Of a DNA stretch of 64,000 nucleotides, positions 1 through 18,847 are shown piece by piece. The DNA is from a virus. Position numbers and translations under genes: made by a program. The stretch covers positions 32,001-96,000 of the IMG/VR virus record IMGVR_UViG_3300037483_001170, one strand, 5' to 3'. Under the pieces are notes generated by a model. That model ran no database searches, was not told the origin of the DNA, and worked only from the letters and a program-made list of their open reading frames with translations. Position 1 is the first letter of the stretch. Each line of letters opens with the position of its first letter.

Positions 1-2
1 TT

Positions 3-581
3 CGTCGACGACTTCGGCGAGCACACGCTGGCCCCAGGGGTCTGGGAGAGAGCGGAGACGGCCTCGGCTGCTTTCTGGCCACGCTCTTCCGCGGCGCTGC
101 CGGCCCCACCCCGCAGGAAGCAGCTGCGGCGGCAGTGGCAGCGGCCAGACCCGACCTCGTCCCGTCCAGGCTGATGCCTGGCGCACCAGGGCATCCGCCC
201 GTGCCCCCGCGCACCGCTCCGGTCACCACAGGCAGCCCCGCTGACCTCGGAACCGGCACGGTCACCTGCAACGGTCAGGTCGTCCTCAGCAACGCCGACT
301 ACTCGACCGCCATGGGCATCGCAGCGGTGACGGCACGACGGAACCAGTCCCCGTGCACCGTACGAGTCACCGGCGGCGTCATCGGCTCACGCACGATCAC
401 GGTCGGCCCGAGCGGTCCCGCGGCCGTCTCCGGGCTCAGCGGCTGGGCGGACGGCATTCCGGTCATGGGCGCGCTCGTCGGAGCAGCCATCGGTGCAGGA
501 GTTGCCCATGCGGCGCAGCAGAACCCGGTCGCCGGTGGCGTGATCGGGGCTGTGATCGGTTCGCTCACGCGACAGACGTAA
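3..581 (+). CDS. 5'-truncated putative virion membrane protein (GLG motifs, C-terminal glycine-zipper hydrophobic segments)
   Basis: The frame of ORF 135..581 is open back to base 3: RRRLRRAHAGPRGLGESGDGLGCFL...SGLSGW...GALVGAAIGAGV...GGVIGAVIG. Confidence 0.6.
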   Translation, partial: RRRLRRAHAGPRGLGESGDGLGCFLATLFRGAAGPTPQEAAAAAVAAARPDLVPSRLMPGAPGHPPVPPRTAPVTTGSPADLGTGTVTCNGQVVLSNADYSTAMGIAAVTARRNQSPCTVRVTGGVIGSRTITVGPSGPAAVSGLSGWADGIPVMGALVGAAIGAGVAHAAQQNPVAGGVIGAVIGSLTRQT

Positions 582-584
582 AGC

Positions 585-1397
585 TCATCGCCGTGACCTA
601 TGGTGCCTACCCGAGCCGCCGCGTCCGAATGTCCGTGCCGGCGTCGGCGACGCCGTCAGCCTCGGTACCGCTTCGTCGAGCAGCTTTACGTCATATCCGG
701 CGTCTGACATTTGCTTTCTTACTCGCAAAGCAAGTGCCATGTCCCCCTCTCTAAGCATCCCAATCTTCACGAGAGGCATGCCGCGGCTCAAGAGTCGGTC
801 CGGCGCCCAATATGTCACGTTCAATCCGGCCATATTCAAATCATGAACTGACACGACGCACCCCGCCTTGAACCCAGCCGCACACATATGTGCCGTCAAG
901 CCATGTTCGTAACGCTGGATGATTTGCTGCTTGTCCTGGAGCGGTACCGCGTTTTCCCAAAACTCCGTGAACGCGGAAGAGGCGCAAACGCGCTGCTTGT
1001 AAACAAGGAAATATCCTTGGAGATTCCAGCCCATTTCCGTGCCATCTGTCATACCCCAGAAATCGCACGGATCTTCGCTCATCCGGTTCATCAAAGCACC
1101 AAGATCGCCCACTGGACCCAGGGTGCTGGAGTTCACGATGACTAGCTCATCGTAGTCCGATGCTGGCGTTTCCTTTAGCGTACTACGGTACATCTCCACG
1201 TCGAAACCGTCGTTTGGGATCTGACGCACCTGATCAACGAGAGGCCTCACGCCGTTGACTTGGGCCTCGCCCAGGCCAGCGGTTGAGACGAAAATCAGCC
1301 GTTCAGCAAGCGGACGCAGTGCCTTGAGCATGAACCTGACGTAGCCTTTGACCGTAGGTTCGCGGTCATAGTGCGCGTAGATGATAAGTCGCCTCAC
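585..1397 (-). CDS. Rhamnan synthesis F (RgpF)-like protein
   Basis: RLIIYAHYD, NDGFD, YDELVIVNSSTLGP, CDFWGMT, LQGYFL, IIQRYEHGLT match the RgpF-family pattern. Confidence 0.8.
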   Translation of the reverse strand: MRRLIIYAHYDREPTVKGYVRFMLKALRPLAERLIFVSTAGLGEAQVNGVRPLVDQVRQIPNDGFDVEMYRSTLKETPASDYDELVIVNSSTLGPVGDLGALMNRMSEDPCDFWGMTDGTEMGWNLQGYFLVYKQRVCASSAFTEFWENAVPLQDKQQIIQRYEHGLTAHMCAAGFKAGCVVSVHDLNMAGLNVTYWAPDRLLSRGMPLVKIGMLREGDMALALRVRKQMSDAGYDVKLLDEAVPRLTASPTPARTFGRGGSGRHHRSRR

Positions 1398-1404
1398 GAC
1401 GCTA

Positions 1405-2016
1405 TTACCTCCTGTAGACGACGATCATGCGACGTCGCACTTCGACGCGCAGCGCTGAGTCTGGCGGAAACTCGCCATCACAAAAGAACTCCCCGTCGTC
1501 TGGCCCGATTACTGTTTGCGAGAGCAGGCCACCGATCCTTCCCGGCTCGAACGCGGGGAGATGCCAGTCCTCGACCACATAGATGCCGCCCGCTCGAAGT
1601 AGTGGCCAGCATAGCGCGAAAGCCGCCTCGATCGACTCGTAACCGTGCGCGCCATCGTCAACGATCATGTCGAAGCTGCCAGGCGCAAAGTCGAGCTTCG
1701 TTGGCATTTTGCGATGAATGAACTCGATATCCAGTTCCGCCAATGCGGCCAGCGACCAGGCGCCTGGGGCGACGCAGTCAACGCCGACCACGCGCGCTTT
1801 CGGCCATAGCGAGCGCCACATTAGCAGGCTCCCGCCATCTGCAATGCCGATCTCAAGCACGGACTCTGGCGTTCGGCGGCCGAGCACCTCTTCGTAGGCC
1901 GCCAACGTCTGGCGGTCCTTCTGGTGCACAATGTCTTCGGCACATCGCTCTAGTGACCTAACGTACGACAACGAAGAGCCGCCGACGTTGATTCGCCCAC
2001 GAAATACATCCATCAC
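1405..2016 (-). CDS. Class I SAM-dependent methyltransferase (sugar O-methyltransferase-like)
   Basis: VLEIGIADGGSL motif I, VVGVD, FDMIVDDGAH, LRAGGIYVVED. Confidence 0.85.
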   Translation of the reverse strand: MMDVFRGRINVGGSSLSYVRSLERCAEDIVHQKDRQTLAAYEEVLGRRTPESVLEIGIADGGSLLMWRSLWPKARVVGVDCVAPGAWSLAALAELDIEFIHRKMPTKLDFAPGSFDMIVDDGAHGYESIEAAFALCWPLLRAGGIYVVEDWHLPAFEPGRIGGLLSQTVIGPDDGEFFCDGEFPPDSALRVEVRRRMIVVYRR

Positions 2017-3193
2017 GGCTCGCGCCTCTCGTTCGAAGCTGCCTGGGTTGCCTGCAAGTTGAACGGATGAATCCGCTTGTACGTCACGAGTGCGTCGACA
2101 GGCCAGACAGGCCCGTATCCCGCAGAAATCAACTGCCGATAGAACACGCCATCAGCAGCGTACTCGATTTCTTTCGATGCTATTGGCCATTGCGGCACCT
2201 TCTCGAAGACGACGCGCCGGTGCGCCACCTGCGACTGATCGAGCTTGCCGTACACGTCTGTCACCGGGCCGCCCGGAAACAGCCCGCGTTCTGCGTCTTC
2301 GTCTTCGAGCATGTACCGGAGCCGCCCGTACCCCATCACCTTGTCTGGGTCCGCAAAGATCGTGTCGAAGTGTCGAAAGCGCTCGGAGGCAAAAAAGTCG
2401 TCATCCGGGATGTAGTGAATCACGTCTCCCTTCACGAAGGTCAACGCATCATTGATGCGCTGCACTCGCGCGCACCCGGCGGGGGCCTGTCGGCCGCGAT
2501 CAGCAGACGGAACCGCGGATCGACATCTGTGAACGAACGAATGACGGACAACGTCTCCTCGTTCGACGCGTCGTCGCTCACGACGCACTCCCAGTTCGGC
2601 CGTGACTGCGTAACGATCGCTCGCAGCGTCTGCGCCACGTACTTCGGCCGGTTGTAGCTACCGACAACCACTGAATGCGTGATGGCACCTGGCGCCGCGG
2701 AGGCCATGTGCACGACGTCGGACCCTGGCAGCACACCCAGCGTCTGAAAACCGCTCCGCTCATAGAGCCGACGGGCCCGCTCGTTTGTGCCCTTCACGTC
2801 CAGCGTGACGCGCTCGAAGCCCATGGCGAACGCCTGGTCGACCACGGCCCGTAGCGCTCTGCGACCGTAGCCGCGGCCCGTCAGATCCGCGCGGCCTACA
2901 TAGAACCGGCCGAACGTGACGGTTCCTGTGTCGCGGTCCGCCCCGTACAGCGACACGTGTCCGATGACGCCGCAGGCTTCATCTCCGAACACCCAGACCA
3001 CCTGCCCGTCCACGTCCGGCTCGTACTTGGTCTCGTACCACGACATGTGCTCGTCGTACGACAGTTCCCTGTCGGTATGAAACTGCTGCCGGATTCGCGG
3101 ATCGGCGCGCCATGCCCTCGTCAGATTCAGCCACTGTGGCCCGAGAAGATCGAACCAAAGCCCCTCAGCCGCGAACCGCTTACGCAGCGTCAT
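2013..3193 (-). pseudogene. GNAT acetyltransferase - GT2 glycosyltransferase fusion, frameshifted near 2460-2480
   Basis: ORF from 3193 has GNAT (GRGYGRRAL, NERARRLYERSGF) then the GT2 N-terminus (SYNRP, VSDDAS). The GT2 C-terminus (INDAL, YIPDDD, LDQSQ, ADGVF) lies in another frame, collinear with paralog 5024..5695. Confidence 0.75.
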
Positions 3194-4356
3194 ACGGCTC
3201 TCGCGTAGAACTCGCCCACCGCGCCCATCACACGCACGACATCTGCACGCGTCACAGCAAGCGACATGGGCAGCGACACCGCACCCCTGCTCTTCTCCCA
3301 GGCTACCGGACAACGCTCCGCCTCGCCAGGCGCGTACATGGCGTATGCGCGGTTGTCCTTGTAGTGAACACCCGGATAGATGTCGTTTGCGTTCATGAAC
3401 ACCATCAACGCGTCGCGATCGTGCGCGACGATCTGATACAAGTGCCGCGACGAGCCGACCGAATGAGGCACCGCCTCAACGGCGCGCGTCCCATCTGGAA
3501 GCAGCGCGCGCCACGGCAGCAAATCGTCGTACCACTCCGCCAGCTGTCGCCGGTACGCATTGTCGTGGTCCAGGTACTTCAGCGACACGAGGCCGATGGC
3601 AGCCATAATGCTGTTGCCGTTGTACTTGTGTCCGACGTGCTCGACGTCGTAGTCCCACCTGTAACTGCCCTGCTGCCCAGTGCGCTGAAAGGTGTTCTTG
3701 TTGATGCCGAGCCACGACCACTTGCGTGCCCAGGTGTCCAGCGCGGCGTCCGCAAAGCACACCATGCCGCTGTCGGCCGTGGGCAGGTTCTTCACGGCCT
3801 GAAAACTGAAACAGGTCGCGTCCGCTTCATGTCCAACATGACGGCCCTGTACTCGCGTGCCGGCCATGTGTGCCGCATCGAGGATCAGGCGTAGCCCGCG
3901 CTCACGACAGAAGCTGCTCACTTCGCGAAGGTGAGCAGGGTTCCCGCCCATTCCGACAAACATCACGGCGCGCGTACGCTCCGACAGCACGGCCTCGATG
4001 CTGGCTACCGTGATGTTCAGCGTCTCGTCGACATCCGCGAACACGGGCTTCATGCCGGCATACAAGATCGCGTGATTGGTCGACACGAAGGTCAGCGGCG
4101 TCGTGATGATCTCATCGCCTTCCTTCCAGTCGCCGGCCATCTTCAAGCCTTCAACTGCCATGTGCAACGCGGCCGTCGCAGAGTTCACGAAGTGCGCGTA
4201 CGGCAACTCCGTGTACTCGCGCCAGGCCGCCTCGAACGCATCGGTCTTGAATCCGAGGCCCGTCCAGCCGACCTCCAGGCACTCCCTGACCGCCGCCAAT
4301 GTCTCCTCAATCCGATAACTTGGCGTGAAGAGCGCAATCCTTTTACCCGCCATCAC
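3190..4356 (-). CDS. DegT/DnrJ/EryC1/StrS PLP-dependent sugar aminotransferase
   Basis: NSATAALH, DEIITTPLTFVST, ILDAAH, FSFQAVKNL (PLP lysine), GVHY, VSLPM. Confidence 0.95.
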   Translation of the reverse strand: MMAGKRIALFTPSYRIEETLAAVRECLEVGWTGLGFKTDAFEAAWREYTELPYAHFVNSATAALHMAVEGLKMAGDWKEGDEIITTPLTFVSTNHAILYAGMKPVFADVDETLNITVASIEAVLSERTRAVMFVGMGGNPAHLREVSSFCRERGLRLILDAAHMAGTRVQGRHVGHEADATCFSFQAVKNLPTADSGMVCFADAALDTWARKWSWLGINKNTFQRTGQQGSYRWDYDVEHVGHKYNGNSIMAAIGLVSLKYLDHDNAYRRQLAEWYDDLLPWRALLPDGTRAVEAVPHSVGSSRHLYQIVAHDRDALMVFMNANDIYPGVHYKDNRAYAMYAPGEAERCPVAWEKSRGAVSLPMSLAVTRADVVRVMGAVGEFYARAV

Positions 4357-5027
4357 TCACTCCCGATTCCGTTGTATGGCACGATGAACGTTTCGCAATG
4401 CGGTAGGCCGCCCCACTTCGCGACATACCGGTCGCGGTTCGAATCGAATCGTCTATGGTGCTCCATCCTCTCGTCACGAGAGAAAGAGGCCACCGTCTGG
4501 CTACCGTTGTTCACGTGAACATACCGGCCAGGCGCCCGCGCCTCCGACGTGATGCCCGACAGGGTCATCCGACGGTGGAAATCGTTGTCCTCGTAGTATG
4601 CCGGCCAGAACTGCTCGTCGAACCAGCCGACCTTCTCGAAGAGACGCTTGCGCACGAGAAAGCACGAAAAGCCTCCGGGCTCTGGCGTGACGAAGTCGAA
4701 GTCGCCGTCTTCCATCACGCGCAGCGCGCTCCCGATCGTGTCCGGCTCGAACAGCACGTCGTCGGCAGCGATGAGCAGCGCGTCATCGTCGGTGAGCAGT
4801 ACATGTCGAGCCATCAGATTCCAAGATCTGGCACAGCCCAGATTCTCTCCGGGTACGTGAATGTCCAGCGCGAGACAGCGTAGGGCTTCGCCCGGCGCCA
4901 GCGAACCGCCGTTATCGACGACCATGAAGCGCTCCGGCGCGCGCGTACCTGTCTGCGCCGAGATGATCATCTTCTCCAGCAGGTCATAGCGACGCAGCGT
5001 CGGGCATCCGAGGGTCAGTCGCATCAT
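4353..5027 (-). CDS. Glycosyltransferase family 2
   Basis: VVDNGG, NLGCARSWN, ADDVLF, VGWFDEQFWPAYYEDND; start refined to ATG 5027 overlapping the upstream stop. Confidence 0.85.
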   Translation of the reverse strand: MMRLTLGCPTLRRYDLLEKMIISAQTGTRAPERFMVVDNGGSLAPGEALRCLALDIHVPGENLGCARSWNLMARHVLLTDDDALLIAADDVLFEPDTIGSALRVMEDGDFDFVTPEPGGFSCFLVRKRLFEKVGWFDEQFWPAYYEDNDFHRRMTLSGITSEARAPGRYVHVNNGSQTVASFSRDERMEHHRRFDSNRDRYVAKWGGLPHCETFIVPYNGIGSE

Positions 5028-5695
5028 TCGCGCTCGTCGATGCTGGAAGTGCCAGTGTTCTGAAGATTCTTCTCGTGACGGCGTTTGTAGCTCACGAGCG
5101 TGTCGATCGGATAGAACGAGTACCCGGCCGCAATCAGCTTCCGAAAGTACGCCGCGTCGAACGCGTAATCGCCTGCGGTCGCCGGCCACTCGGGGGCCTG
5201 CTGAAAGCACGAGAAGCGATGGCAGAACTGTCCGTGGTCCACGCGACAGACCGGATCTGTCAGCACGCGCCCGTGGTACAGCTCGCCGGCTGGCTCGTCG
5301 TTCTCGATGTACTTCAGGCGTCCATAGGCCACATCGCACAGGGGGTTGGCTTCAAAGAAGCGCTCGAACGCCGGGAAACGACCGGGCGCATACCAGTCGT
5401 CGTCCGGCAGATAGTGCACAAGATCGGCATCGATCAGTCGAATCGCGTCGTTGATGCACATCACGGCGCGGACGGCCGGGTCGGCAAGCTCACCCTCGCG
5501 CGGCCGATCCGAGTAGATGACACGGCAACGCGGATCTCCCGCAAACGCGAGGCTGATCGCCTGGCGCGTCTCCTCGTTCGAACCGTCGTCAGCGACGATT
5601 AGCTGGAACGAGCTGGCCTGCGTTCGCACCGACCGGATGGCCTTCGTGACCATGGTCGGACGGTTGTAGCTTGACAGTACGACCGCGTGACGCAC
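5024..5695 (-). CDS. Glycosyltransferase family 2
   Basis: SYNRP, LIVADDGS, INDAI, YLPDDD. Confidence 0.85.
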   Translation of the reverse strand: MRHAVVLSSYNRPTMVTKAIRSVRTQASSFQLIVADDGSNEETRQAISLAFAGDPRCRVIYSDRPREGELADPAVRAVMCINDAIRLIDADLVHYLPDDDWYAPGRFPAFERFFEANPLCDVAYGRLKYIENDEPAGELYHGRVLTDPVCRVDHGQFCHRFSCFQQAPEWPATAGDYAFDAAYFRKLIAAGYSFYPIDTLVSYKRRHEKNLQNTGTSSIDERE

Positions 5696-5698
5696 GGA

Positions 5699-6280
5699 TC
5701 ACTCCGACTTCGACGGCTCGACCTCGACCGGCGTCGAAGCCGCTGGCGGCGTCATGACGCTGGCGGCGGCCTGCACGGCCTTCTCGATGAACACGTCCGC
5801 GTTGACTTCGGCCTGCTCACGCAGCTCGCGCATCTTGGCGCGCTTGGCGACCTGCTCGCCCGGGGTGAACTCGCCCGCGCCCATGTTGCGCTTCGGCAAC
5901 AGCGTCAGCTGACCACAGGGTACGGGAATCCTGTTCCCCTGCGCATCGAGCACGAACTCACCCGTCTCGTCCTTCTCGTGCACGACCTGGCCCTTGTCGT
6001 CCTTCGCGACTCCGGAGCATGGGCCGGCGTAGTTCTCGACCTCGTCGCCCATCGCGGCAAGCTCTTCGGCATCGAAGCGGATCGTGCCCTCCCAGCCGCA
6101 CATGATGCAGCAGAACAAGCACTCGTTCGGGACCTGATCGCCACGCAGGCGCACGAGCGCCGAGCGCGCCTCTTCCTTGCCGCGAACAACCATCGCGGTA
6201 CGCGGCACATCGTCGTAGATCTTGACGGTCTGCGCCGAGTTGTCGACAGCCGGCTCCGGCTTGTTCTCTGTGTCGCTCAT
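5699..6280 (-). CDS. Hypothetical protein (Cys cluster)
   Basis: Operon-consistent ORF with high GC3; CLFCCIMCGW. Confidence 0.6.
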   Translation of the reverse strand: MSDTENKPEPAVDNSAQTVKIYDDVPRTAMVVRGKEEARSALVRLRGDQVPNECLFCCIMCGWEGTIRFDAEELAAMGDEVENYAGPCSGVAKDDKGQVVHEKDETGEFVLDAQGNRIPVPCGQLTLLPKRNMGAGEFTPGEQVAKRAKMRELREQAEVNADVFIEKAVQAAASVMTPPAASTPVEVEPSKSE

Positions 6281-6486
6281 GACTTTTTCCTCTTCACGGC
6301 CTTCTTCTTCTTCTTCGGCCGCTCATCACGGTAGTGATCGACGACGTGATTGATCGCGGCGCCAACGCTGTAACGTGCGCCGACCTTCAGTTCGTGGACC
6401 TCGGCCACCCGCTTCAGCTTTTCGACGCGAGACTTGTGCGTTCTGAACGTGATACGCACGTCCGTCGCCTTGTCATCTTCGATCAC
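6277..6486 (-). CDS. Small basic protein, possible ribbon-helix-helix DNA binder
   Basis: VRITFR strand followed by two helices and a Lys-rich tail; 4-bp overlaps on both sides. Confidence 0.5.
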   Translation of the reverse strand: MIEDDKATDVRITFRTHKSRVEKLKRVAEVHELKVGARYSVGAAINHVVDHYRDERPKKKKKAVKRKKS

Positions 6487-6788
6487 GGCTTCACCGCCCG
6501 TTCAGTGCGCACCATTGCGATGTCAGAGCCCAGTAGCGCAAACCGAAGGCTGCGCATCCGAGACTTCCCCTTCTCGGTTACCTGTTCGTTCACGTCGAAC
6601 TCCCAGATGTCGTCACCGTTGCCGACCTCGCGGAAGTCGACTGCGGCGAACGCAATCAGGTCCTGACCTGTCGCGATGCCCGCTCCGGCATCCGTGGTCA
6701 CGAGCCGGTGCCCTGGCTCTGTCTGTCTCATCAAGATCTCGACCGGACCGCTGCCGATCTGTCGAAGATAGGGTCCCATGCTACTCAT
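6483..6788 (-). CDS. Hypothetical protein
   Basis: ATG 6788 overlaps the GT4 stop (ATGA coupling). Confidence 0.55.
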   Translation of the reverse strand: MSSMGPYLRQIGSGPVEILMRQTEPGHRLVTTDAGAGIATGQDLIAFAAVDFREVGNGDDIWEFDVNEQVTEKGKSRMRSLRFALLGSDIAMVRTERAVKP

Positions 6789-7876: not shown

Positions 7877-9276
7877 GTGCCGCTCCAGCTGCGCAGCGTC
7901 TCCTCGTCAACGAACTCTCGAAGCGCTGCGACAAGCGTCGCGCGCGTCGCGTCGAACGAGAAGCGGCGCGTGACGTCCTGCGCCGTCTCGACGCTGCGGA
8001 CGCGGCCGGCGTCGTATGCTGCCCGCATCTGCGCCGCGAGCGCGTCGACCTCGTAATCGCCCCAGCACGACTTCGTGCTGAGAAGCGTGCTGTGCTTCAA
8101 CATGGCACGCGGCACAGGCGTCAGCTTGCTGGGGAACACGCGGAAGGCTGAAGAAGCGTCGGGCATCGAGCTGACCTCGCGCGCCAGATCGCCCACCGCG
8201 CCGAAGTCGCTTGTGACGACCGGCACACCCTGCGCCGCCGCCCAGATGAGCGGAATCCCGAGGCCCTCTCCGAAGCTCGGGTTCACGTAGCAGTCGAGAC
8301 CGCCGAGCCACTCGATCAGCTCCGCGTCAGTCACGCCGGTGCCGCCGAGCAGCTTGAACCGTGGCGATTCCCAGCCCGGCTTCTGGTAGTCGAGCTTGAT
8401 GGTGCCGATCTCGCCGAGCACCTGCCGCTCGAAGTCCATGAGCAAGGGCTGGTCACGTCCGCTGCCGAAGTAGCTCGTGCGGAGCGCCAAGATCACGTTG
8501 TCGCTTCGGCTGAACGCGGAGAGGTATGCACGCACGAGCTTGTGAAAGCCCTTGCGCTCATGCCAGCTGCCGTTCACGCCGAAGACGAAGGGCCCATCCG
8601 TGCGCGCTGGCCTCTGGTGCAGCATCGGGGTCCAGGGACCATCGCAGAGCGCAGGGCGGACGACGCAGATCTTGTTTGGATCGATACCAGACTCGATGTA
8701 GCAGCGGCGGGTGAACTCGCTGACGCACCAGATCCATGTCAGCTCCGGCGCTGCGCAGAGGCGTCGCGCGTACTCGCTCATCGGAGACGCCTCGAAAGCG
8801 ACGTACGAGACGAACGCGGGTGCACCGCGGTCAAGTCCGCGCAAGTCTGGCGGAAAGCTCGCGATGAATGCCTTCGGAATTCCGACTGACGTCTTAAGCC
8901 ATCTCATCAACATCGGCTCCCGATCTTCCGGGAATTTGCTGATGTCGATGTCCATCCCAGGGAACGGCGCGAGCATCGTCGGAGCGCCCAGGCGTTCCAG
9001 CATCGAGTGCAGCGCGACCGCGTGCGCGGCGTACCCAGAGCGCGTTCCGCATGGGAACGTGTGCCAGAGGCCGACGACGTCGTGACCCTCCGCTGGCTCC
9101 GCAACGTAGTGGTAGCCGAGGCGATCGCGGACGTCGCCCTCCATCTGCCTGTTGATCTGTTCGTGCTTCGACTTGAACTCCGCCGACGCGGGCGCGTAGC
9201 GGTTCTTTGCCTCAGCGATCTCTGCGGACGCTTCGTCCTCAGAGATCGGGAGCGATACAGGGGTAGTGTCAGACAT
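7873..9276 (-). CDS. Glycosyltransferase family 4 (GT-B)
   Basis: SGYA, VSEF, ERKG, DCYVNPSFGEGLGIP, GVPVVTSDFG. Confidence 0.88.
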   Translation of the reverse strand: MSDTTPVSLPISEDEASAEIAEAKNRYAPASAEFKSKHEQINRQMEGDVRDRLGYHYVAEPAEGHDVVGLWHTFPCGTRSGYAAHAVALHSMLERLGAPTMLAPFPGMDIDISKFPEDREPMLMRWLKTSVGIPKAFIASFPPDLRGLDRGAPAFVSYVAFEASPMSEYARRLCAAPELTWIWCVSEFTRRCYIESGIDPNKICVVRPALCDGPWTPMLHQRPARTDGPFVFGVNGSWHERKGFHKLVRAYLSAFSRSDNVILALRTSYFGSGRDQPLLMDFERQVLGEIGTIKLDYQKPGWESPRFKLLGGTGVTDAELIEWLGGLDCYVNPSFGEGLGIPLIWAAAQGVPVVTSDFGAVGDLAREVSSMPDASSAFRVFPSKLTPVPRAMLKHSTLLSTKSCWGDYEVDALAAQMRAAYDAGRVRSVETAQDVTRRFSFDATRATLVAALREFVDEETLRSWSGT

Positions 9277-9314
9277 TGGAGTGGGACCCTACAGCAGTTG
9301 TCAGACATGCACAA
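9267..9314 (-). promoter_or_regulatory. Promoter of the glycosylation operon with two TGTCTGACA palindromes
   Basis: Minus strand TTGTGC-17-TAGGGT-9-ATG; palindromes at 9267-9275 and 9299-9307. Confidence 0.55.
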
Positions 9315-9894
9315 GAGGCTCGTGCGCCTGAGTGGGCCACAGCCGGCTGGAAGCCAGCGCGTGGCCCACTTCGCCACTCTGGCCTCCCCAGAGCACGATG
9401 CAGCCGGCGTCGTACGCGTCTGGCGCGAGGCCGTCCGGAAGCCCAGGGAAGCGAGACCGTGTGACGAGCTTTGCAGCTGCTTTCAGCTCGGCTGACGTCC
9501 GCGCTCCCAGCCCCTTCAACATCGCGCCCTGCCACGTCTTCACGTTCACGCGCAGCAGTCGCTTCCTCGGGACTCGGTAGTGCCGAAGCACGCGCTCCCA
9601 GTCCCGCCAGGCGGCCCCCAGGCCGAGCAATGTCGACGCGTGCATCTTGCCGTCGCGCACGGCGCCGCCCGCCGTCCACTTCTCGCCCAGTACGATCAGA
9701 CCCAGGCCATGGGCGCGCGCTTCGGCAATCGCGGCCTCCACGACCTGGCACCGCTCGGCTTCGGCGCCGACGCGATCCCGAATCACGCCGACGCGCAACG
9801 AACCCGGTCGCCAGATGCCCCAGCCGCTTTGTGCGGCCGAGTCGATGCCGAGGATGACGACCTGGTGCGGCCTCCAGACGGGAGGAAGTGCCAC
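9301..9894 (-). CDS. RuvC-like Holliday junction resolvase
   Basis: ILGIDSAAQSGWGI, VLGEK, VKTWQ, DAYDAGCI: the RNase H-fold acidic residues. Confidence 0.7.
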   Translation of the reverse strand: MALPPVWRPHQVVILGIDSAAQSGWGIWRPGSLRVGVIRDRVGAEAERCQVVEAAIAEARAHGLGLIVLGEKWTAGGAVRDGKMHASTLLGLGAAWRDWERVLRHYRVPRKRLLRVNVKTWQGAMLKGLGARTSAELKAAAKLVTRSRFPGLPDGLAPDAYDAGCIVLWGGQSGEVGHALASSRLWPTQAHEPLVHV

Positions 9895-11378
9895 TAGCAG
9901 TGCGACCAGAGAGCCCGCTCACCGCAGACGCAGACCTGGAGCGCACGACGGCGGTCTTCGTCGTCAGTCCAGTCGTAGGCGAGGATCACGTCGTCATCCC
10001 CAACGTTCACGCCAGTGAGCGTTGCGTTTTGCGCGATCCGAACGAAACCGCCGACCTTGGACGGGATGCCCTTGCGCACCAGCGCGTCTGCAGCGCGAGC
10101 CCGCTCAGCCGCGCCCGGCTCCAGATCATCGAGCGAGAACAGCGCCTGCGTGGAACCTGAAACGCCGTACAGAGCGTGTCCCTGCACTTCCAGAACGGGA
10201 ACGATCCGTTCGTCGCCGATCGCCCACGGGCCATCTGCTGGATCGTCGTCGGGCAGGATGAACCCTGAAAAACCAGCAGCCTGTTCCATGGCGTCCAGTA
10301 CATCGATCGGCGCAGACCGTTTGCTGCCCACGGAGACGCTGGAGCCGCTGGCTGCCGAAGTGGTTCGCGCAAACGCGGGCTTCGAGTCCCGGAAGCGCTG
10401 GCTAAAGGCGTTGATGCTCTGCTCACTCTTCGTTGCCGGACCAAGAGCCGGAGGCGCGTAGGGCTCAGGCACGTCCGTGTCAGCGATAGCGTTGAAATCA
10501 GCAAAAACCTTGGCTTGGCGCTTTGCGCGCATCAAGCTCTCGCGGGGACGGGTCTCGCTGCCGTCTCGACGGATTTCGCCACGGAGCAGCCGGCGTCCAT
10601 ACTGGTACACCTCCGTACGCAAGAGCGCGACATCGCCGTCTGCCCGACCGAGACCCGACTCATACCCACAAAGAGCGAGCCGAAAACGCTCTGGATATTC
10701 GTTGATCGCAATCTCAAGCCGGCGATCTGCGCGCTGACCTTCCGGCAGTTCGCGAAAGTCTGACAGCCGTAGACCCGCGGCCACGTCAACGTTCCGTTCA
10801 TCGCTTGAACGCGTGTCCGGTTCGTACTCGCCCATCAAACGTACCGCGATTCCCAGCGCCAACTCGGCATACGGGACTGGAAGTGCCTGTCGAAACGTCA
10901 ACGCCTCTTGCGATTCACTGACCGCTTCCCACGCTTCCGTTGCTGCGGTCCTAACCGAAATCGCCTTGCAGAGTGCCAAATACAAGGCGAACGACATGGC
11001 ACGAGCGCGCTCGCTGTTGATGAACGCATATCTGGCGGCCTGATCGCGACGGAGATCGTCAATCTCCGCATGGCCATTGCGCTCCGGCGTCACTTCGCGC
11101 GCCAACGCGTCAGTCAGCATGAGCATGGTTTCGTTGCACGATCGATGGTGCAAAAACGCCGCCCACGTTCGCGGATCTCTCGCTACAAGCACACCAGCAA
11201 CGTCAGCTGGCGTTGCTGTGCCAGCTAGAAAGTCGAGAAGAGTCGTGCGCAGCACGGCGCGCCACTGGTGCTCCTCGGTTCTGAAGAATTCAACACACAC
11301 CCACGGGCCCGGGTCTCCGTCTTCGGCCGCGTCCAGTCGTGCCTGGAGCATCGCGCCATCCATTGCCTGAATGTCCAT
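9894..11378 (-). CDS. Hypothetical protein (494 aa)
   Basis: Long ORF abutting both neighbours by 1-bp overlaps; no motif recognised. Confidence 0.65.
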   Translation of the reverse strand: MDIQAMDGAMLQARLDAAEDGDPGPWVCVEFFRTEEHQWRAVLRTTLLDFLAGTATPADVAGVLVARDPRTWAAFLHHRSCNETMLMLTDALAREVTPERNGHAEIDDLRRDQAARYAFINSERARAMSFALYLALCKAISVRTAATEAWEAVSESQEALTFRQALPVPYAELALGIAVRLMGEYEPDTRSSDERNVDVAAGLRLSDFRELPEGQRADRRLEIAINEYPERFRLALCGYESGLGRADGDVALLRTEVYQYGRRLLRGEIRRDGSETRPRESLMRAKRQAKVFADFNAIADTDVPEPYAPPALGPATKSEQSINAFSQRFRDSKPAFARTTSAASGSSVSVGSKRSAPIDVLDAMEQAAGFSGFILPDDDPADGPWAIGDERIVPVLEVQGHALYGVSGSTQALFSLDDLEPGAAERARAADALVRKGIPSKVGGFVRIAQNATLTGVNVGDDDVILAYDWTDDEDRRRALQVCVCGERALWSHC

Positions 11379-11764
11379 CAGTCCTCCAGCGTCTGCTCAC
11401 GCGTCCGACGCGTGAACTCGGCGAGCACTGCACTCGCTTCGCTCAGGTCCTTCGCCACGCCTTCGTAGCCGTCGGACTCCATCAGCTTCGCGTGCTGCTC
11501 CAGTCGCTTCCGAGTCCGGTCGATTCCACGAAGAGGCCCATCGGTCGTGAAGAAGAGCCGCTCGTTCGGCGCGACCCGCTTCTTCTTGCCGAAGAACTTC
11601 TGCCAGAGCCAGAAGCCAACGGCCGCCGCCGCCAGAAGCAGGAGCAGCGTCCGAAGATCGAAGCCGCCTTCGCGCGCCAGTGGAACCGGCGCCTGCGCGA
11701 GCGACAGCGGATAGAGCTGTTGCTGCGCGCGGCCCGGCGGCAAGACCGGCGCGTGATAGCTCAC
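11378..11764 (-). CDS. Putative virion membrane protein
   Basis: GTG start (MSYHAP) overlapping the upstream stop; TM LLLLLAAAAVGFWLW followed by KKKRVAPN. Confidence 0.6.
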   Translation of the reverse strand: MSYHAPVLPPGRAQQQLYPLSLAQAPVPLAREGGFDLRTLLLLLAAAAVGFWLWQKFFGKKKRVAPNERLFFTTDGPLRGIDRTRKRLEQHAKLMESDGYEGVAKDLSEASAVLAEFTRRTREQTLED

Positions 11765-12348
11765 CGGGACGTGGCCTTCATGTCGATGGTCATCATCGTC
11801 GCGCCAGACATGTCCGTCATCGCGATCGAATCCGTGACCTTCACGCACCACGAGTGGCAGTAGTCGCAGATCCATCGCTCAGGGCTCGACACGATCGCGA
11901 TCTTGTCGTCCGACGCGGGCGCTCGACCGAGCTTGTTCTTGCAGTGCCAAGCCCAGTTAATCGCGAGGTGATTGCTGGGCGGCAGCTTGCCGTACTTCAC
12001 CCAGTCGAGAGACATCGCCTTGTTGCCCTCCTGGACGTGGAAGAAATTCTGCTGACCGTGCTCGGTCCAGCAGACGGGGCACTGTCCGACCAGCATGCAC
12101 TCGGCACGACCGTCGCTGCCCTGGGTCATCTGAATCTCACACTCGATCGTGCAGATCTCCTCGCCCTTGTTGGTGGCCTTCCACAAGATCCACGTCTTCG
12201 GCGCGAGGTCTTCCGAGTCCACCGATGTGCCGGCGAAGCGGCCATCGCCGGGGCGACCCGCGCGATCCATCAGCGCGCGGCCCGCTGCCCACTCGCGCTC
12301 GCCCATCTTGCCGCCGAAAATGCCGCCGTCCTTCGAGATCTTTCTCAT
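11761..12348 (-). CDS. Cys-rich putative zinc-binding protein
   Basis: CPVC and CDYCHSWC motifs. Confidence 0.6.
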   Translation of the reverse strand: MRKISKDGGIFGGKMGEREWAAGRALMDRAGRPGDGRFAGTSVDSEDLAPKTWILWKATNKGEEICTIECEIQMTQGSDGRAECMLVGQCPVCWTEHGQQNFFHVQEGNKAMSLDWVKYGKLPPSNHLAINWAWHCKNKLGRAPASDDKIAIVSSPERWICDYCHSWCVKVTDSIAMTDMSGATMMTIDMKATSR

Positions 12349-12354
12349 GCCCAG

Positions 12355-12735
12355 CTACCTCTTTCGCCGCCGCCGACGGCCATTCGCTTTGAGCTTCCCA
12401 GCTCGGAACTCCTGCAACACGCGATACGAAGCCCACATGCTCATCCCACTGAGCACGTAGAGCACGATCATCGGCGGCCCGAAGTAGGGGACGACGTACC
12501 GGCGGATCGTGGTGCGGATCGCCGGACCGACGATGTGCGTGTCGAGCGCCGCAACAATCCGCGGTCCCGCAGCAGCCAACGTTCTATCCGGATTCGAGAT
12601 CAGGCCGGCGGCAAGCGACGCGATGTTCGCCACGTCCTGGCCAGTGACCTGGCCCATGCCGTCGCCGCTGTCGTAGTTGCCGAGAGCGCGCGGACGACGA
12701 CGCGGGCGCATCGCGAGCATGGTTGCCGCGCTCAT
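12355..12735 (-). CDS. Putative virion membrane protein
   Basis: RPRRRPRALGNYDSGDGMGQ, C-terminal TM, KLKANGRRRRRKR tail. Confidence 0.6.
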   Translation of the reverse strand: MSAATMLAMRPRRRPRALGNYDSGDGMGQVTGQDVANIASLAAGLISNPDRTLAAAGPRIVAALDTHIVGPAIRTTIRRYVVPYFGPPMIVLYVLSGMSMWASYRVLQEFRAGKLKANGRRRRRKR

Positions 12736-13040
12736 CGGTGGCTCCACCACCAGTAGCCACCAGCCGCGAGCGCCACTGCGCCGACAGCCCAGAGAGCGGT
12801 CGACGACGAGCCTGCGCTGCCGACCTGACTCGGCACGGTACTCTGCGTGGTCGTGATCGCGACCTCACTTCCCGTCGGCACGCACTCGGGGGTCATGCCC
12901 ACGCGGGCCGAGATCGACATGCCAGGAGGGCACATGTAGCAGCTCGAATCGGGAGGAATGTTACGACACTCCATCCGCGCGAGGTTGAGCCCAGGACGCA
13001 CGGGAGTCGCCGTTCCGAGGCCAGACAGCGAATAGCTCAT
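12732..13040 (-). CDS. Putative virion membrane protein
   Basis: MSYSLSGLG start, four Cys, C-terminal TM ALWAVGAVALAAGGYWWW. Confidence 0.65.
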   Translation of the reverse strand: MSYSLSGLGTATPVRPGLNLARMECRNIPPDSSCYMCPPGMSISARVGMTPECVPTGSEVAITTTQSTVPSQVGSAGSSSTALWAVGAVALAAGGYWWWSHR

Positions 13041-13492
13041 CGCCGCCTCCGGCGCGCACCGTTCGAGGTCACGCGCTTCTTCTTGCCTGCGAAGTAGCCG
13101 GCCGCCAGGGCGAGCGGGATCCCGACGAACGTGCCGACCGCGGTGATCTTCGCGTACTCCACGAGCTGGGCGTACGCGACAGGCGCTGCCGCTGGACCGC
13201 CCCAGATGCTCGCAGCGGTCTGCGCGAATCGCGAGAGCACGGTGCCCTCCACGGCCTGCCCGAGCCCGAGAAGCGGCACGCCGCCGTTCCTGACGTAGTT
13301 CCCGTACACGTAGCGCGACCCGGGTCGAGCGCCGTCCAGGTTGATCTCCTGCTCCCCCCAGCGAAGCCGCGCCGGACTGTAGCCGGCGCCAGGAATCGGC
13401 GTGGTCGTGTCGTACGGATACGACCGGTACCGGCCGTAGTGACCCGGCAGGTACAACGCAGGCGTGTACGCCGGGAGCTGGAGCTTCGCCAT
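13037..13492 (-). CDS. Putative virion membrane protein
   Basis: Tyr/Gly-rich N-terminus, LLGLGQ, TM, GKKKRVTSNGARRRRR tail; ATG 13492 follows TTGCCC-17-GAGACT. Confidence 0.65.
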   Translation of the reverse strand: MAKLQLPAYTPALYLPGHYGRYRSYPYDTTTPIPGAGYSPARLRWGEQEINLDGARPGSRYVYGNYVRNGGVPLLGLGQAVEGTVLSRFAQTAASIWGGPAAAPVAYAQLVEYAKITAVGTFVGIPLALAAGYFAGKKKRVTSNGARRRRR

Positions 13493-13545
13493 GCCGAAAG
13501 TCTCGCGCACTCGGAGCCCAAGGGCAAGACCGAGGCGAACGACGA

Positions 13546-13848
13546 CTAGACCAGCTCGCCGACGATGTCCGACTCGTGCACGACCAGGTGCTCGACCCCG
13601 TCGAGAACGATCTCGATGCCCGAGTACTGGCCGATCACCACACGGTCGCCGGCCTTGACGCTCGGCTCGATGCGCTTGCCCTCGACGAGCGCGCCTGGGC
13701 CACACGCGATGACCGTCGCCTCCAGCGGCTTCGCCTTCGCGGTGTCGGGGAAGATGATGCCACCTGCGCTCTTCTCTGGCGGCTTCTCTCGGCGTACGAC
13801 GATGCGGTCGCCCAGCGGACGGATTTCGGTCTTCTTTTCCATGCTCAC
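13546..13848 (-). CDS. groES: Co-chaperonin GroES (Cpn10)
   Basis: IRPLGDRIVV, SAGGIIFPDTAKAKP, VKAGDRV, YSGIEI, ESDIVG. Confidence 0.95.
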   Translation of the reverse strand: MSMEKKTEIRPLGDRIVVRREKPPEKSAGGIIFPDTAKAKPLEATVIACGPGALVEGKRIEPSVKAGDRVVIGQYSGIEIVLDGVEHLVVHESDIVGELV

Positions 13849-13854
13849 TCCTTC

Positions 13855-14451
13855 TTACGGGTTCCAGATGCCTGACGAGACAGCCGGCGCCGACGCCGGC
13901 TTCGGCTTCTTCCTGCGACTCCCGCGCTTGCTCGTGCGCTTCGCTGGCTTTCCGGGCTCGACCGCAGCTGCCGGTCCGCGCTTCTTTCGTGACGTCCGCT
14001 TGGGCCCTGGAGCCTTCGGCTTCCGGCTCGTGCGCTTCGGCGACGCCTCAGCCGCCTGCTCTTCGGCCTCGCGTCCGCCGTCGGCGGCGAGCTTCGCGAT
14101 CACGAGCTTCTTCAGGTCGGCGCTGGCGAACCGTCCGGTCTTTCCTGCGAGCAGGTAGACGAGCTTGCCCTCCTCGTCGATGACGCCAACCGCCTGCGAG
14201 TCGAGCAGTTTCTTCGCCTCAGCAGAAAGGAAGCGGAACGTCGTCGACCGGTCGTAGACCGCGCGGCTCAGGTACTCCCTGAGCTGGATCCGGAAAGCAC
14301 CGCCAGCGTCGAGATGACATTCGATGGTTCGGTACCATCGTCCGGTACTGGGCGGGCCGGCTGTGCCGGAGGTTGGGGCGGCGGCGAGAGCTGCTGGGGC
14401 ACTGCGCTTGGCGCCGAACGCGCGACTGCCGTTGGAGCTGTTGTCGGACAT
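13855..14451 (-). CDS. Hypothetical protein with histone-like basic C-terminus
   Basis: MSDNSSN start after TTGCCA-18-TATGCT; repeated KRTS(R/K)K. Confidence 0.55.
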   Translation of the reverse strand: MSDNSSNGSRAFGAKRSAPAALAAAPTSGTAGPPSTGRWYRTIECHLDAGGAFRIQLREYLSRAVYDRSTTFRFLSAEAKKLLDSQAVGVIDEEGKLVYLLAGKTGRFASADLKKLVIAKLAADGGREAEEQAAEASPKRTSRKPKAPGPKRTSRKKRGPAAAVEPGKPAKRTSKRGSRRKKPKPASAPAVSSGIWNP

Positions 14452-14987
14452 CGGCCGGGAGCATACGCACGACTGTCGGACACTGGCAAGACCGCAATGC
14501 GAGATCTGCGAGCCCAGATCGGCCACGCTCGGCTCAGGTCCGGCTCGACGTACCAACGCGCCGTCAGCTTGTCGGGACGCCAGAGCGCTGGGACGACGAC
14601 GACGACGTAGTCCGCGACGCGCTGCCACTCGGCGAGGGCAACGTCTGGATGTTCCAGATGTTCGAGCACGTCGCACGCGAACAGCGCGCCAAAGTAGCGG
14701 TCTGACCACGGCATCGTGTAGTAGTTGCTGTAGCTGACGACGTTCGGCCCCGGCACGCACACGGGCGCGCACTCGTCGAGGTTCACGTCGCCGTAGAGAC
14801 GCGAGCCTAGGATCGATGCGCGTACGCTACGACCGCTCACGCCAGCGCCAAGGTTCACGAGCGGCTTCTGGCGCATCCGGGCGATCTTTCGCGCGATGCC
14901 TGCCATCTCGTACGGACGGGTGACGGCATCCCGCAGGTACGCCGCGCTGGCGATGCCGAGCCCCACCTTGATCAGTGCGTCGCGCAC
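14268..14987 (-). CDS. Methyltransferase type 11-like protein with hydrophobic N-terminus
   Basis: VNLGAG, DVNLD, ACDVLEHLEHPDVALAEWQRVA. Confidence 0.7.
   Translation of the reverse strand: MRDALIKVGLGIASAAYLRDAVTRPYEMAGIARKIARMRQKPLVNLGAGVSGRSVRASILGSRLYGDVNLDECAPVCVPGPNVVSYSNYYTMPWSDRYFGALFACDVLEHLEHPDVALAEWQRVADYVVVVVPALWRPDKLTARWYVEPDLSRAWPIWARRSRIAVLPVSDSRAYAPGRCPTTAPTAVARSAPSAVPQQLSPPPQPPAQPARPVPDDGTEPSNVISTLAVLSGSSSGST
14442..14489 (-). promoter_or_regulatory. Promoter with two TGTCCGACA palindromes
   Basis: Minus strand TTGCCA-18-TATGCT-8-ATG; palindromes at 14442-14450 and 14474-14482. Confidence 0.55.
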
Positions 14988-15038
14988 GCTTTAGGCTACC
15001 AGTTGCAGCACGTGGCGGCCATGAGCTACCATTTCCCC

Positions 15039-15347
15039 ATGAGCTACCAGCGGATCGCCGGGATGAGATCGAACCGTTTCCCTCTCATGGGCCTCGGCTG
15101 CGCGGGCTGCAACGGGCGCTGCGCGGGCACGGCCCCTGGCACGTCCGGCCTCGGCTGCGGAGGTGGCTGTGCGCCGCCGATCATGTCCGTCGCTGGCCTC
15201 GGGCACGCGCTCGGGCTCGACGTCGAAAGCGCTGCCTTCGGGCTCGGCATCGCGGCCGCAGGCTTCATCGGCCTCGGCGCCGGCTGGTTCGCACACGGCG
15301 CGCTCGCACCACGTCGTAACCGTGGGCGTCGTCGGCGCACGAACTGA
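15039..15347 (+). CDS. Putative virion membrane protein with three GLG motifs
   Basis: MSYQ start; LMGLGC, SGLGC, VAGLGH; TM; RRNRGRRRR tail. Confidence 0.65.
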   Translation: MSYQRIAGMRSNRFPLMGLGCAGCNGRCAGTAPGTSGLGCGGGCAPPIMSVAGLGHALGLDVESAAFGLGIAAAGFIGLGAGWFAHGALAPRRNRGRRRRTN

Positions 15348-15355
15348 ACGCCCTC

Positions 15356-15655
15356 ATGAGCTACAAGCACGGCTTCGGACAGGCGGTCGCCGAGGGCACC
15401 GTCTTCAGCCTCACCGATCCGGATGTTGCTGCTCAGCAGCCGCCGACGCCCGTGCCCTCCAGCAAGCCGAGCGGTGGCTCTCCAGCTCCGTACTACGGAC
15501 CGCCCGCCACCGTCGGCAAGACCTCGGGCACGCCGATCACGAGCGCGAGCTTGCCGACGTACGCGGCTGGCGCGCCGAACTGGATGCCGTGGGCGATCGG
15601 TGGAACGATCACCGTGGTCGGCATCGGGCTCGTACTGGCAGCGCTACGTCGCTGA
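15356..15655 (+). CDS. Putative virion membrane protein
   Basis: MSYKHGFGQ start, Pro-rich linker, C-terminal TM WAIGGTITVVGIGLVLAALRR. Confidence 0.65.
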   Translation: MSYKHGFGQAVAEGTVFSLTDPDVAAQQPPTPVPSSKPSGGSPAPYYGPPATVGKTSGTPITSASLPTYAAGAPNWMPWAIGGTITVVGIGLVLAALRR

Positions 15656-15940
15656 TCAGGTAGGCGCCGCGGGCGTTCGACGCTCTGCACACAGCAGGCA
15701 GCAGGCGAAGCCCACCACGCGTAGCGCCGTCCCCGTCTCGTACAGCCACGTCCAGCGTGTAGCGAGGCCACACCGTGCGCACTGGCCGACGTCGACGACT
15801 GCGACGCGGTACAGCGTCGATCCGTCAGCGTAGGTCGCCATAGGCTCGGGCGTCGTCACGCACGCCTCCGCCGTCGCGACGAGCGCACGGGCACCGCGAC
15901 GACGAGCGTCACCATCAGACCGCTGATCTCGACACGCGCT

Positions 15941-16243
15941 TCACCGTGGACATGCAGACGGCAGCCGAGGATGCCGCCAGCCCCGAAGTACGTCGGCTGG
16001 CATCTGCGCATGTGCAGCCATCTGGGCCCGATAGTCGTACCGACGTAGGGCACGAACCTCTTCCTCGATCTGCGCAGCTGGCCAGCGATGACGCAGGCCT
16101 CGCTCTCGTACGAGCTTCTCCATCTCAGCCTTTGCCTGCTCGACCGCCGACGCGGGCGACAGCGCATCGAGAACGAGTACCGAGATCTCGTCGTACCACG
16201 TGATACAAACGGAGTACTCGACCGATGCGCCGTCTGCTTGCAT
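15941..16243 (-). CDS. Hypothetical protein
   Basis: ATG 16243 coupled to the upstream stop. Confidence 0.45.
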   Translation of the reverse strand: MQADGASVEYSVCITWYDEISVLVLDALSPASAVEQAKAEMEKLVRERGLRHRWPAAQIEEEVRALRRYDYRAQMAAHAQMPADVLRGWRHPRLPSACPR

Positions 16244-17385: not shown

Positions 17386-17450
17386 CTTCCCAGTCTTTCT
17401 TTTCTTCTGCCCAGATCTGCCCAGAAGCGCGCCGTTCGGACGCGCCTCGC

Positions 17451-18037: not shown

Positions 18038-18053
18038 CTGAACGTTCCTTCCG

Positions 18054-18135: not shown

Positions 18136-18145
18136 AACGTCCGAC

Positions 18146-18777: not shown

Positions 18778-18790
18778 GACGCTCTCCCGA

Positions 18791-18846: not shown

Positions 18847-18847
18847 G

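Follow-up and report, generated by a model that had tools for sequence, protein, structure and literature searches.

Shared N- and C-terminal tags on candidate structural membrane proteins of a probably undescribed lineage of large bacterial viruses

The DNA analysed here (the window; 64,000 nucleotides) corresponds to bases 32001–96000 of a single 106,780-bp viral contig, IMG/VR record IMGVR_UViG_3300037483_001170. It contains seven open reading frames (ORFs) whose products carry short Gly motifs of the G-L-G type. Each of the seven proteins has a hydrophobic helix close to its C-terminus, and three of them end in Asn and a run of Arg (NGRRRRRKR, NGARRRRR and NRGRRRRTN). These elements are called tags below. 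The Gly motifs were noticed in a first-pass annotation made from the letters alone, and all those it quoted were found in place. The ORFs proved to be real; they are conserved and lie in a large virus-like genome. The seven tagged proteins are listed below (aa, amino acids; TM, transmembrane helix).

Protein 1, 1–581, plus strand, start 261 bases before the window: 280 aa; IMGLGM, RGLGESGDGLGC and SGLSG internal; C-terminal Gly-zipper hydrophobic helix; polyArg tail absent.
Protein 2, 12355–12735, minus strand: 126 aa; variable N-terminal leader, ALGNYDSGDGMGQV, conserved body, TM and the tail KLKANGRRRRRKR; the motif quoted in the first-pass annotation is RALGNYDSGDGMGQ.
Protein 3, 12732–13040, minus strand: 102 aa; MSYSLSGLGT start, C-terminal TM, WWWSHR end.
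Protein 4, 13037–13492, minus strand: 151 aa; conserved 75-aa N-terminal domain running to VPLLGLGQ, variable linker, TM and the tail KKKRVTSNGARRRRR.
Protein 5, 15039–15347, plus strand: 102 aa; head MSYQRIAGMRSNRFPLMGLGC (MSYQ..LMGLGC), also SGLG, VAGLG and FGLG, TM and the tail PRRNRGRRRRTN.
Protein 6, 15356–15655, plus strand: 99 aa; MSYKHGFGQAVAEGTV (head MSYKHGFGQ), Pro-rich linker, TM, ALRR end.
Protein 7, 57184–57993, minus strand: 269 aa; MSYRAG start, AMGLGA at residues 39–45, conserved globular domain (GWSYQITPEDALWLARS...), C-terminal TM.

The window's contig is linear, has 64% G+C and is about 47% complete according to CheckV. About 185 genes were called on it with a codon-bias gene caller; they are densely packed, with many overlaps of start and stop codons. 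Names were obtained from PHROG and Pfam for replication and auxiliary genes only (SNF2 and other helicases, AAA ATPase, NAMPT, tyrosine integrase, 5'-3' exonuclease, DNA methylase, dual-specificity phosphatase and a sugar-modification island at 585–9276). A megablast search of window positions 1–20000 against GenBank phages gave no match. Related contigs were collected by an alignment-based scan of IMG/VR using the family alignment of protein 4 as query. Eight were found, whereas scans for related loci with single proteins (protein 4 or a 486-aa protein) gave none. Three of the eight were analysed whole:

G001: 298 kb, 90% complete.
G003: 161.5 kb, with direct terminal repeats, 100% complete.
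G004: 171 kb, 100% complete.

Gene order in the window's contig follows that of G001 over roughly 10–146 kb of the latter, with protein identities of 50–80%. About 35 genes are common to the window's contig, G003 and G004, among them the tagged genes of proteins 2, 4 and 7. These contigs probably belong to an undescribed lineage of large (about 160–300 kb) bacterial viruses for which a tailed form is unlikely.

The tags were then followed through the protein families. For protein 1, the motifs given in the first-pass annotation were confirmed and the start was corrected: the window edge cuts the ORF, which had been read as 3–581, and the true start lies 261 bases upstream with MSYRAPIRRPGLGQ. 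When read in the contig, the full-length protein also has an MSY/GLGQ head. Its orthologues in G001, G003 and G004 begin MSY..GLGQAK or MSY..GMGQ, and the residues after GLGQ (AKxVPGQ[IL]SF) are conserved as well. In the four-genome alignment of protein 2, G[LM]GQV and [AP]N-RRRR are invariant. The start of the protein 3 gene overlaps the stop of the upstream gene. Protein 4 has 21 metagenomic homologues; their alignment contains an invariant P-L-x-G-x-G (P73, L74, G76), Asn144 and Arg147, and the linker varies. The G001 orthologue of protein 5 ends in an identical tail. The stretch MSYKHGFGQAVAEGTV of protein 6 is comparable to GLGQAVEGTV of protein 4, and the neighbour of protein 6 in G001 starts MSYHGEGFGQ. 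Protein 7 is the product of a core gene; its orthologues are 45–77% identical and start MSYAMMGLGQ in G004 and MSYATKRTSLGQ in G003. In the families of proteins 2 and 7, the Gly motif marks the exact junction of the conserved body with an N-terminal leader whose length varies. No family was found in PHROG or NCBIfam for any of the seven proteins; Pfam was run on protein 7 only among them and gave no match. A reading of GLGC as the lipobox of a lipoprotein was ruled out by inspection (no hydrophobic signal region, Gly at -3). The gene of protein 7 stands beside a tyrosine integrase gene (window 55814–57136, plus strand). The integrase is kept in all four genomes with 34–61% identity, has a second copy in G001 and always adjoins the tagged gene of this type. 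It is an odd gene for a 160–300 kb virus with terminal repeats.

Lineage-wide counts were made on the 1175 called proteins of four genomes (the window's contig, G001, G003 and G004). MSY is by far the commonest start: it heads 56 of the 1175 proteins, whereas the dipeptide SY has a frequency of 0.18% (p 2e-58); the next, MSD, is found in 29 proteins. Three features go with the MSY start:

Motif [GA][LMF]G within the first 30 residues: 27 of 56 MSY proteins, 64 of 1119 others, odds ratio 15.
C-terminal TM: 29 of 56 MSY proteins, 105 of 1119 others, odds ratio 10.
TM followed by an Asn-polyArg tail: 16 of 56 MSY proteins, 21 of 1119 others, odds ratio 21.

The MSY leader is 7–27 residues long, and the families bearing it are unrelated to one another. 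Among the residues that follow the early motif, Gln is the most frequent (13 of the 27 MSY proteins). The Asn-polyArg tail is carried by 37 proteins altogether, some 5–19 per genome, with a consensus near [T/S]-[P/A]-N-R-R-R-R. MSY starts and C-terminal helices also recur in more distant relatives found in bins of metagenome-assembled genomes (MAGs), and the Asn-polyArg tail was seen there once. The enrichment of GLG, a check suggested in the first-pass annotation, was measured by within-protein shuffles in the window's contig, where 34 occurrences were counted for 17 expected (z 4.3). MSY is encoded with Ser codons of both families, and every one of the six Arg codons occurs in the tails, which places the selection at the level of the peptide rather than the DNA. 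Since cytoplasmic enzymes, among them the SNF2 helicase and a DnaQ-like exonuclease, also start with MSY, this start by itself is a general trait of the lineage, which suggests that N-terminal Ser-Tyr is favoured throughout it once Met is removed. What sets the membrane class apart is the combination of Gly motif, helix and tail.

The first-pass annotation had compared the Gly motifs to the sites (M/L/I)XGX-G cut by the adenovirus protease (adenain, AVP; substrates pVI, pVII, pX/Mu, pIIIa, pVIII and pTP). There are likenesses. In both cases unrelated proteins, virion proteins in adenovirus, share a short Gly-containing site, and MSGLG, MNGMG, LLGLG and LMGLG of the present proteins fit the adenain consensus. 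Arg-rich DNA-condensing core proteins are among the adenovirus substrates, and Arg-rich proteins are also present here. However, neither an adenain- nor an Ulp1-family protease was detected. Six-frame searches with PF00770 (Peptidase_C5) at E<=1 were negative for the window's contig and the related records G001–G004, in which a very divergent homologue is possible, and PF02902 (C48) had no match at the same threshold in the window's contig, G001, G003 and G004. Nor is the adenain consensus enriched in the window's contig, with 34 occurrences of [LMI]xGxG for 30.1 expected and 26 of [LMI]xGGx for 30.2 expected. Unlike adenain sites, the signature here lies at the extreme N-terminus after MSY, and the proteins are membrane-anchored in viruses of bacteria. 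At 300 G[LMF]G sites, the P4 residue was M, L or I in 22% of cases against a background of 14%, and Gln after all G[LMF]G sites was enriched 3.9-fold. Since P4 is mostly not M, L or I and Gln is enriched, the conserved signature is G-[LMF]-G-Q rather than the adenain consensus; some instances fit both. The adenain part of the first-pass interpretation is thus not supported.

Genes for a head, a tail and DNA packaging were searched for in the same genomes and records. An HK97 capsid, a portal and a tail encoded elsewhere, named in the first-pass annotation as the findings that would speak against a tailless virus, were looked for in the rest of the contig and in the three 90–100% complete relatives and were not found. 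In six-frame searches at E<=1, no match was obtained with the HK97 capsid profile PF05065 (window's contig and G001–G004), the portal profile PF04860 or the terminase profiles PF03237 and PF17289. The same searches gave no match for the hallmarks predicted for a membrane-containing virus, namely the double-jelly-roll capsid of nucleocytoplasmic large DNA viruses (PF04451) and the A32 packaging ATPase (PF04665). FtsK (PF01580) gave only 16 bits, below threshold, inside the SNF2 helicase. Essentially all G003 proteins of at least about 300 aa were scanned with PHROG, and many with Pfam, and no head, tail or packaging family was found. A 'terminase large subunit' match to PHROG in G003 proved to be an intein in a helicase, and a 'portal' match a Nudix domain. 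A core superfamily-2 helicase of G003 (81383–84505, plus strand) is split by an intein with a Hint domain and a LAGLIDADG homing endonuclease, which accounts for the misleading 'terminase large subunit' match. Apart from helicases, no core protein with a Walker A motif was found. A conjugative element was considered on account of ParB-like and PcfJ-like genes and was rejected; no VirB4, VirD4 or relaxase family was found among the large proteins scanned.

Most tagged genes of the three relatives lie in a conserved block without Pfam or PHROG matches:

G003: 23–52 kb.
G001: 205–253 kb.
G004: 139–167 kb.

The tags occur much more often than chance would allow and are under selection for the peptide sequence; they persist in distant relatives and cluster in this module without known families. 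Two of the highly conserved core proteins were modelled. The first (270 aa) shows about 70% identity from genome to genome, and its family has 79 representatives in a library clustered at 50% identity. Its model is a single beta-sandwich (predicted local distance difference test, pLDDT, 76; predicted template modelling score, pTM, 0.76). The top Protein Data Bank (PDB) match found with VIA was the jelly-roll capsid protein of SPV1 (chain 6oj0_T; Z 7.7, root-mean-square deviation (rmsd) 3.5, 136 aa), followed by the jelly rolls of STIV, HHIV-2, HCIV-1, P23-77, FLiP and PRD1 P5. Foldseek matches were weak (best E 7e-3 in the PDB and 6.7e-4 in BFVD, with low TM-scores) and mostly to jelly-roll capsid proteins; PRD1 P3 was matched at E 0.03 only, and the model has one sandwich. 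The second protein (314 aa) has 218 hit clusters (E<=0.001) from several public metagenome sources, and the 120 listed among them are all at least 60% identical. Its model is poor (pLDDT 60). The top VIA match was again SPV1 6oj0_T (Z 7.7, rmsd 4.3, 140 aa), and nearly all those below it were matches to the long N-terminal helix of the model. Both SPV1 matches are below the VIA caution line of Z 8, and no homology between the two families was detected with hhalign. The two models are beta-sandwiches compatible with a jelly-roll capsid, and no more than compatible. Homologues of the 314-aa protein were also seen on contigs binned into MAGs of Lentisphaeraceae, Planctomycetota, Pirellulales, Bifidobacteriaceae, Deltaproteobacteria and Pseudomonadales; such inconsistent hosts are probably binning artefacts.

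Three other proteins of the conserved block are relevant. A protamine-like protein of 680–921 aa (G003 33931–36696, minus strand; G001 orthologue 218134–220176) is made of repeated '(T/A)ANGRRRSRR' units, a unit shared with the tails of the membrane proteins, and of repeated C-terminal 'EYV(D/S)QPM(S/N)G(L/M)G' cassettes; it had no match in Pfam, PHROG or NCBIfam. A muramidase-like protein is also present. Finally, a transglutaminase-like protein of 190–200 aa (G003 47236–47832, minus strand; G001 247996–248571; G004 143491–144141) is 70–82% identical between genomes and is the only enzyme-like candidate in this functionally unassigned module. In its alignment C120, H156/H158 and D175 are invariant, in the order found in transglutaminases. 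The ESM Atlas feature score was 0.97 to Transglut_core clusters, with Peptidase_C93 as a minority label in one cluster. With PF01841, the G001 orthologue and nothing else in G001 was matched, at 17.3 bits for a cut-off of 23 bits; the G003 protein had no Pfam match. A profile search against PDB sequences returned only spurious matches (designed Kelch repeats), which were discarded. Just past the window, an M23 peptidoglycan endopeptidase (contig 102479–103303, minus strand) carries a fused TM at its C-terminal end, followed by a PNRRRRARAA tail, and is kept in G003 and G004 with the same RMQPNRRR tail. The large tailless virus with a membrane postulated in the first-pass annotation is thus partly supported. 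HK97 capsid, portal and terminase were not found, two core proteins are jelly-roll-like, and peptidoglycan hydrolases bear the same anchor. The double-jelly-roll capsid and the A32 ATPase expected of such a virus were not detected, and FtsK stayed below threshold.

With moderate confidence, we propose that the tagged ORFs encode structural or morphogenetic membrane proteins of an undescribed, probably non-tailed lineage of large bacterial viruses. The head (MSY, 0–25 variable residues and G-[L/M/F]-G(-Q)) would be a common recognition signal in particle assembly, and most likely a leader that an enzyme encoded by the virus cuts off at the Gly motif or beside it. The candidate for this enzyme would be the transglutaminase-like Cys-His-Asp protein of 190–200 aa rather than an adenain. 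The hydrophobic C-terminal helix would anchor the protein in a virus-associated lipid membrane; such a membrane in the particle is suggested because many TM proteins are encoded in the conserved module. The Asn-polyArg tail of some of the proteins would lie on the DNA side and neutralize or hold the packaged genome, acting together with the protamine-like protein of repeated 'ANGRRR' units.

Several points weigh against this proposal. The absence of hallmark genes holds at the sensitivity of profile hidden Markov models (HMMs) only. The window's contig, being only about 47% complete, does not contain the main module, so that the virion argument rests on the relatives. The fold matches are middling (Z below 8, Foldseek E no better than 7e-3 against the PDB), and what they show is a beta-sandwich rather than a capsid. 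The transglutaminase-like match does not reach the Pfam threshold. Gln follows the early motif in only 13 of 27 cases, and the motif or the anchor is missing from roughly half of the MSY proteins. A polyArg run after a single TM fits the ordinary positive-inside rule and does not require DNA binding. The location of the tagged proteins in a virion and in its membrane, their cleavage, the binding of DNA and the identity of the enzyme are all inferred from sequence alone.

Other explanations were weighed on the same data. The head motif could remain uncleaved and serve as a docking signal that binds the capsid or a scaffold, or a true transglutaminase could use its Gln as acyl donor and cross-link the membrane proteins to the shell. 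The prevalence of Gln after the early motif and its 3.9-fold enrichment over all G[LMF]G sites would suit this, as would the transglutaminase-type Cys-His-Asp core of the sole conserved enzyme candidate of the module; AKxVPGQ[IL]SF after GLGQ is conserved in the protein 1 family as it would be in a binding element. We nevertheless regard an uncleaved head as rather unlikely, since Gln is missing from half of the early motifs and the position of the motif between a variable leader and a conserved body in two families is typical of a processing site. Sequence cannot separate cross-linking or docking from cleavage. Also unlikely, and given little credence here, is a jumbo phage with a tail, in which the capsid, portal and terminase have diverged too far to be recognized by profile HMMs. 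In that case the tagged proteins would belong to the host membrane (for lysis, exclusion or compartment building) or, equipped with a T4-like capsid-targeting leader, to the interior of the head. PF05065, PF04860, PF03237 and PF17289 had no match at E<=1 in the searched genomes and records, the large G003 proteins gave no head, tail or packaging PHROG apart from the intein and the Nudix domain, the only core P-loop ATPases found are helicases, and the best-conserved core proteins were modelled as beta-sandwiches and not as HK97 folds. Such a phage would nonetheless fit the genome size, the direct terminal repeats of G003, the CheckV estimates and the many genes of phage type (helicases, NAMPT, integrase, exonuclease, methylases), and hallmark proteins of jumbo phages are often missed by Pfam.

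The C-terminal part could also be a cellular sorting signal borrowed from the host, in the style of GlyGly-CTERM/rhombosortase, PEP-CTERM/exosortase or LPXTG/sortase. This is highly improbable. A TM followed by an Arg cluster is superficially alike, and a few members have GLG beside the helix, but the conserved Asn comes after the helix and not before it, and the Gly motif is usually far N-terminal, 50–250 residues from the helix. No NCBIfam model matched any of the seven tagged proteins at E<=0.1; we take NCBIfam to contain models of the GlyGly-CTERM, PEP-CTERM and LPXTG signals. Lastly, the motifs might be a by-product of a G+C-rich genome, in which Gly, Ala, Leu and Arg are abundant, and of ORFs read in the wrong frame. 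The G+C content of the contig, its many spurious ORFs in six frames and the weak enrichment of the class G[LMIVF]G as a whole (z 1.8) could have been explained in this way. The probability left to it is negligible and such an artefact is already refuted: GLG keeps its z of 4.3 against shuffles that preserve the composition of each protein, the MSY excess and the odds ratios of 10–21 stand, homologues from independent metagenomes have invariant motif residues, and codon choice varies at the conserved residues.

The proposal of structural membrane proteins in a non-tailed lineage can be extended to a wider and more tentative picture, which we put forward as a possibility that is itself doubtful. 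In a giant (160–300 kb) tailless lineage, the genome would be condensed inside a lipid vesicle by the protamine-like protein together with the Asn-polyArg tails that as many as about 20 membrane proteins would carry. The shell would be of single jelly rolls and would be assembled without a terminase or a motor of the FtsK/A32 type. Maturation would be carried out by a transglutaminase-fold enzyme acting on the MSY...G-L-G-Q head.

Parts of this proposal have counterparts in known systems. In bacteriophage T4, internal proteins share a short N-terminal capsid-targeting leader, are delivered into the assembling particle and are then cut at a fixed motif. The likeness with the substrates of prohead proteases (T4 gp21, phiKZ-type gp175) is the short N-terminal leader common to unrelated proteins, here putative particle proteins (27 of the 56 MSY proteins). 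T4 and phiKZ use Glu-containing sites (L/I-x-E and S/A/G-x-E), S77-type or related proteases and HK97-fold heads. In contrast, no HK97 head, portal or terminase was found here, and the tagged proteins have a membrane helix and often an Arg tail.

Jelly-roll viruses with an internal membrane (SPV1/Portogloboviridae; P23-77, HHIV-2 and HCIV-1; PRD1, PM2 and FLiP) also encode many small membrane proteins, and their capsid proteins are the best, if weak (Z 7.7), fold matches of the two core proteins. PRD1-like phages have particle-associated peptidoglycan hydrolases, to which the tagged M23 peptidase may be compared, and SPV1 has a nucleoprotein core wrapped in membrane. Their genomes are of about 10–45 kb, against 160–300 kb here, and neither an A32 packaging ATPase nor a double jelly roll was detected here, with FtsK below threshold only. 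To our knowledge, none of these viruses uses an MSY/GLGQ head or an Asn-polyArg tail. Arg runs at a protein end, or whole Arg-rich proteins, neutralize packaged nucleic acid in nodavirus-type Arg-rich motifs (ARMs), adenovirus VII/Mu and baculovirus P6.9. Here, the Arg run differs in following a membrane helix and a conserved Asn, and its DNA binding is putative. Finally, BTLCP proteins (Peptidase_C93, e.g. LapG) have a Cys-His-Asp transglutaminase fold and are site-specific proteases that remove the N-terminal module of a membrane-associated protein at a small-residue motif. The present candidate has the same Cys-His-Asp order; unlike them, it is below threshold with PF01841, has Peptidase_C93 as a minority label and has a predicted activity only.

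Other genes noted in the window, several of which adjoin the tagged genes, are as follows.

11378–11875, minus strand: possible member of the tagged class; 165 aa, with a central TM and then KKKRVAPN.
11761–12348, minus strand: Cys-rich core protein, 195 aa; always adjoins tagged genes; 45–70% identity in G001, G003 and G004; no Pfam or PHROG family.
13546–13842, minus strand: GroES-like co-chaperonin gene, directly downstream of tagged genes; recognized from its translation (MSMEKKTEIRPLGDRIVVRR...) only; G001 orthologue 70% identical.
13855–14451, minus strand: 198-aa protein with a Lys/Arg/Pro-rich C-terminal half (KRTSRKPKAPGPKRTSRKKRGPAAA...), 77% identical in G001; adjoins the GroES-like gene.
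6785–9276, minus strand: two glycosyltransferases of family 4 (GT4), 363 and 467 aa; core genes adjoining the tagged genes and syntenic with them; 35–74% identity in G001, G003 and G004.
585–9276, minus strand: sugar-modification island with an RgpF-like rhamnan synthesis protein, a methyltransferase, a GNAT domain fused to the start of a family 2 glycosyltransferase (GT2), a DegT-type aminotransferase, two GT2 and the two GT4.
38160–39560, minus strand: NAMPT (phrog_448, E 3e-162).
45499–45939, minus strand; 46709–47467, minus strand; 50879–51703, minus strand; and 29078–30922, plus strand: auxiliary and replication genes; together with 38160–39560, the types listed are NAMPT, dual-specificity phosphatase, N6/N4 DNA methylase, 5'-3' exonuclease and AAA ATPase.

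The 11378–11875 protein may belong to the tagged class, as judged by eye from a YPLSLAQAP stretch that also occurs in a G003 core protein (41684–42355) encoded in the virion-like module. The 198-aa protein may be another DNA-binding protein, to judge by its composition. The sugar-modification island hints at virus-encoded glycosylation of the particle or of host surface components.

No description of such viruses or tags was found in a full-text literature search. The membrane-containing phages known to us have genomes of about 10–20 kb, and the bacterial viruses above 100 kb known to us are tailed and have HK97-fold heads. If the proposal is true, the relatives of 160–300 kb, which have no recognizable head, tail or packaging genes and are rich in tagged membrane proteins with a protamine-like protein, would represent a new architecture for large bacterial viruses. 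The lineage appears to be widespread, as judged from the 218 hit clusters of the 314-aa capsid candidate family. The tags give a concrete candidate pair of enzyme and substrate, the transglutaminase-like protein and the G-L-G-Q head. They also offer an easy means of recognizing, from sequence, the probable structural proteins of these viruses, which are so far unannotated in databases.

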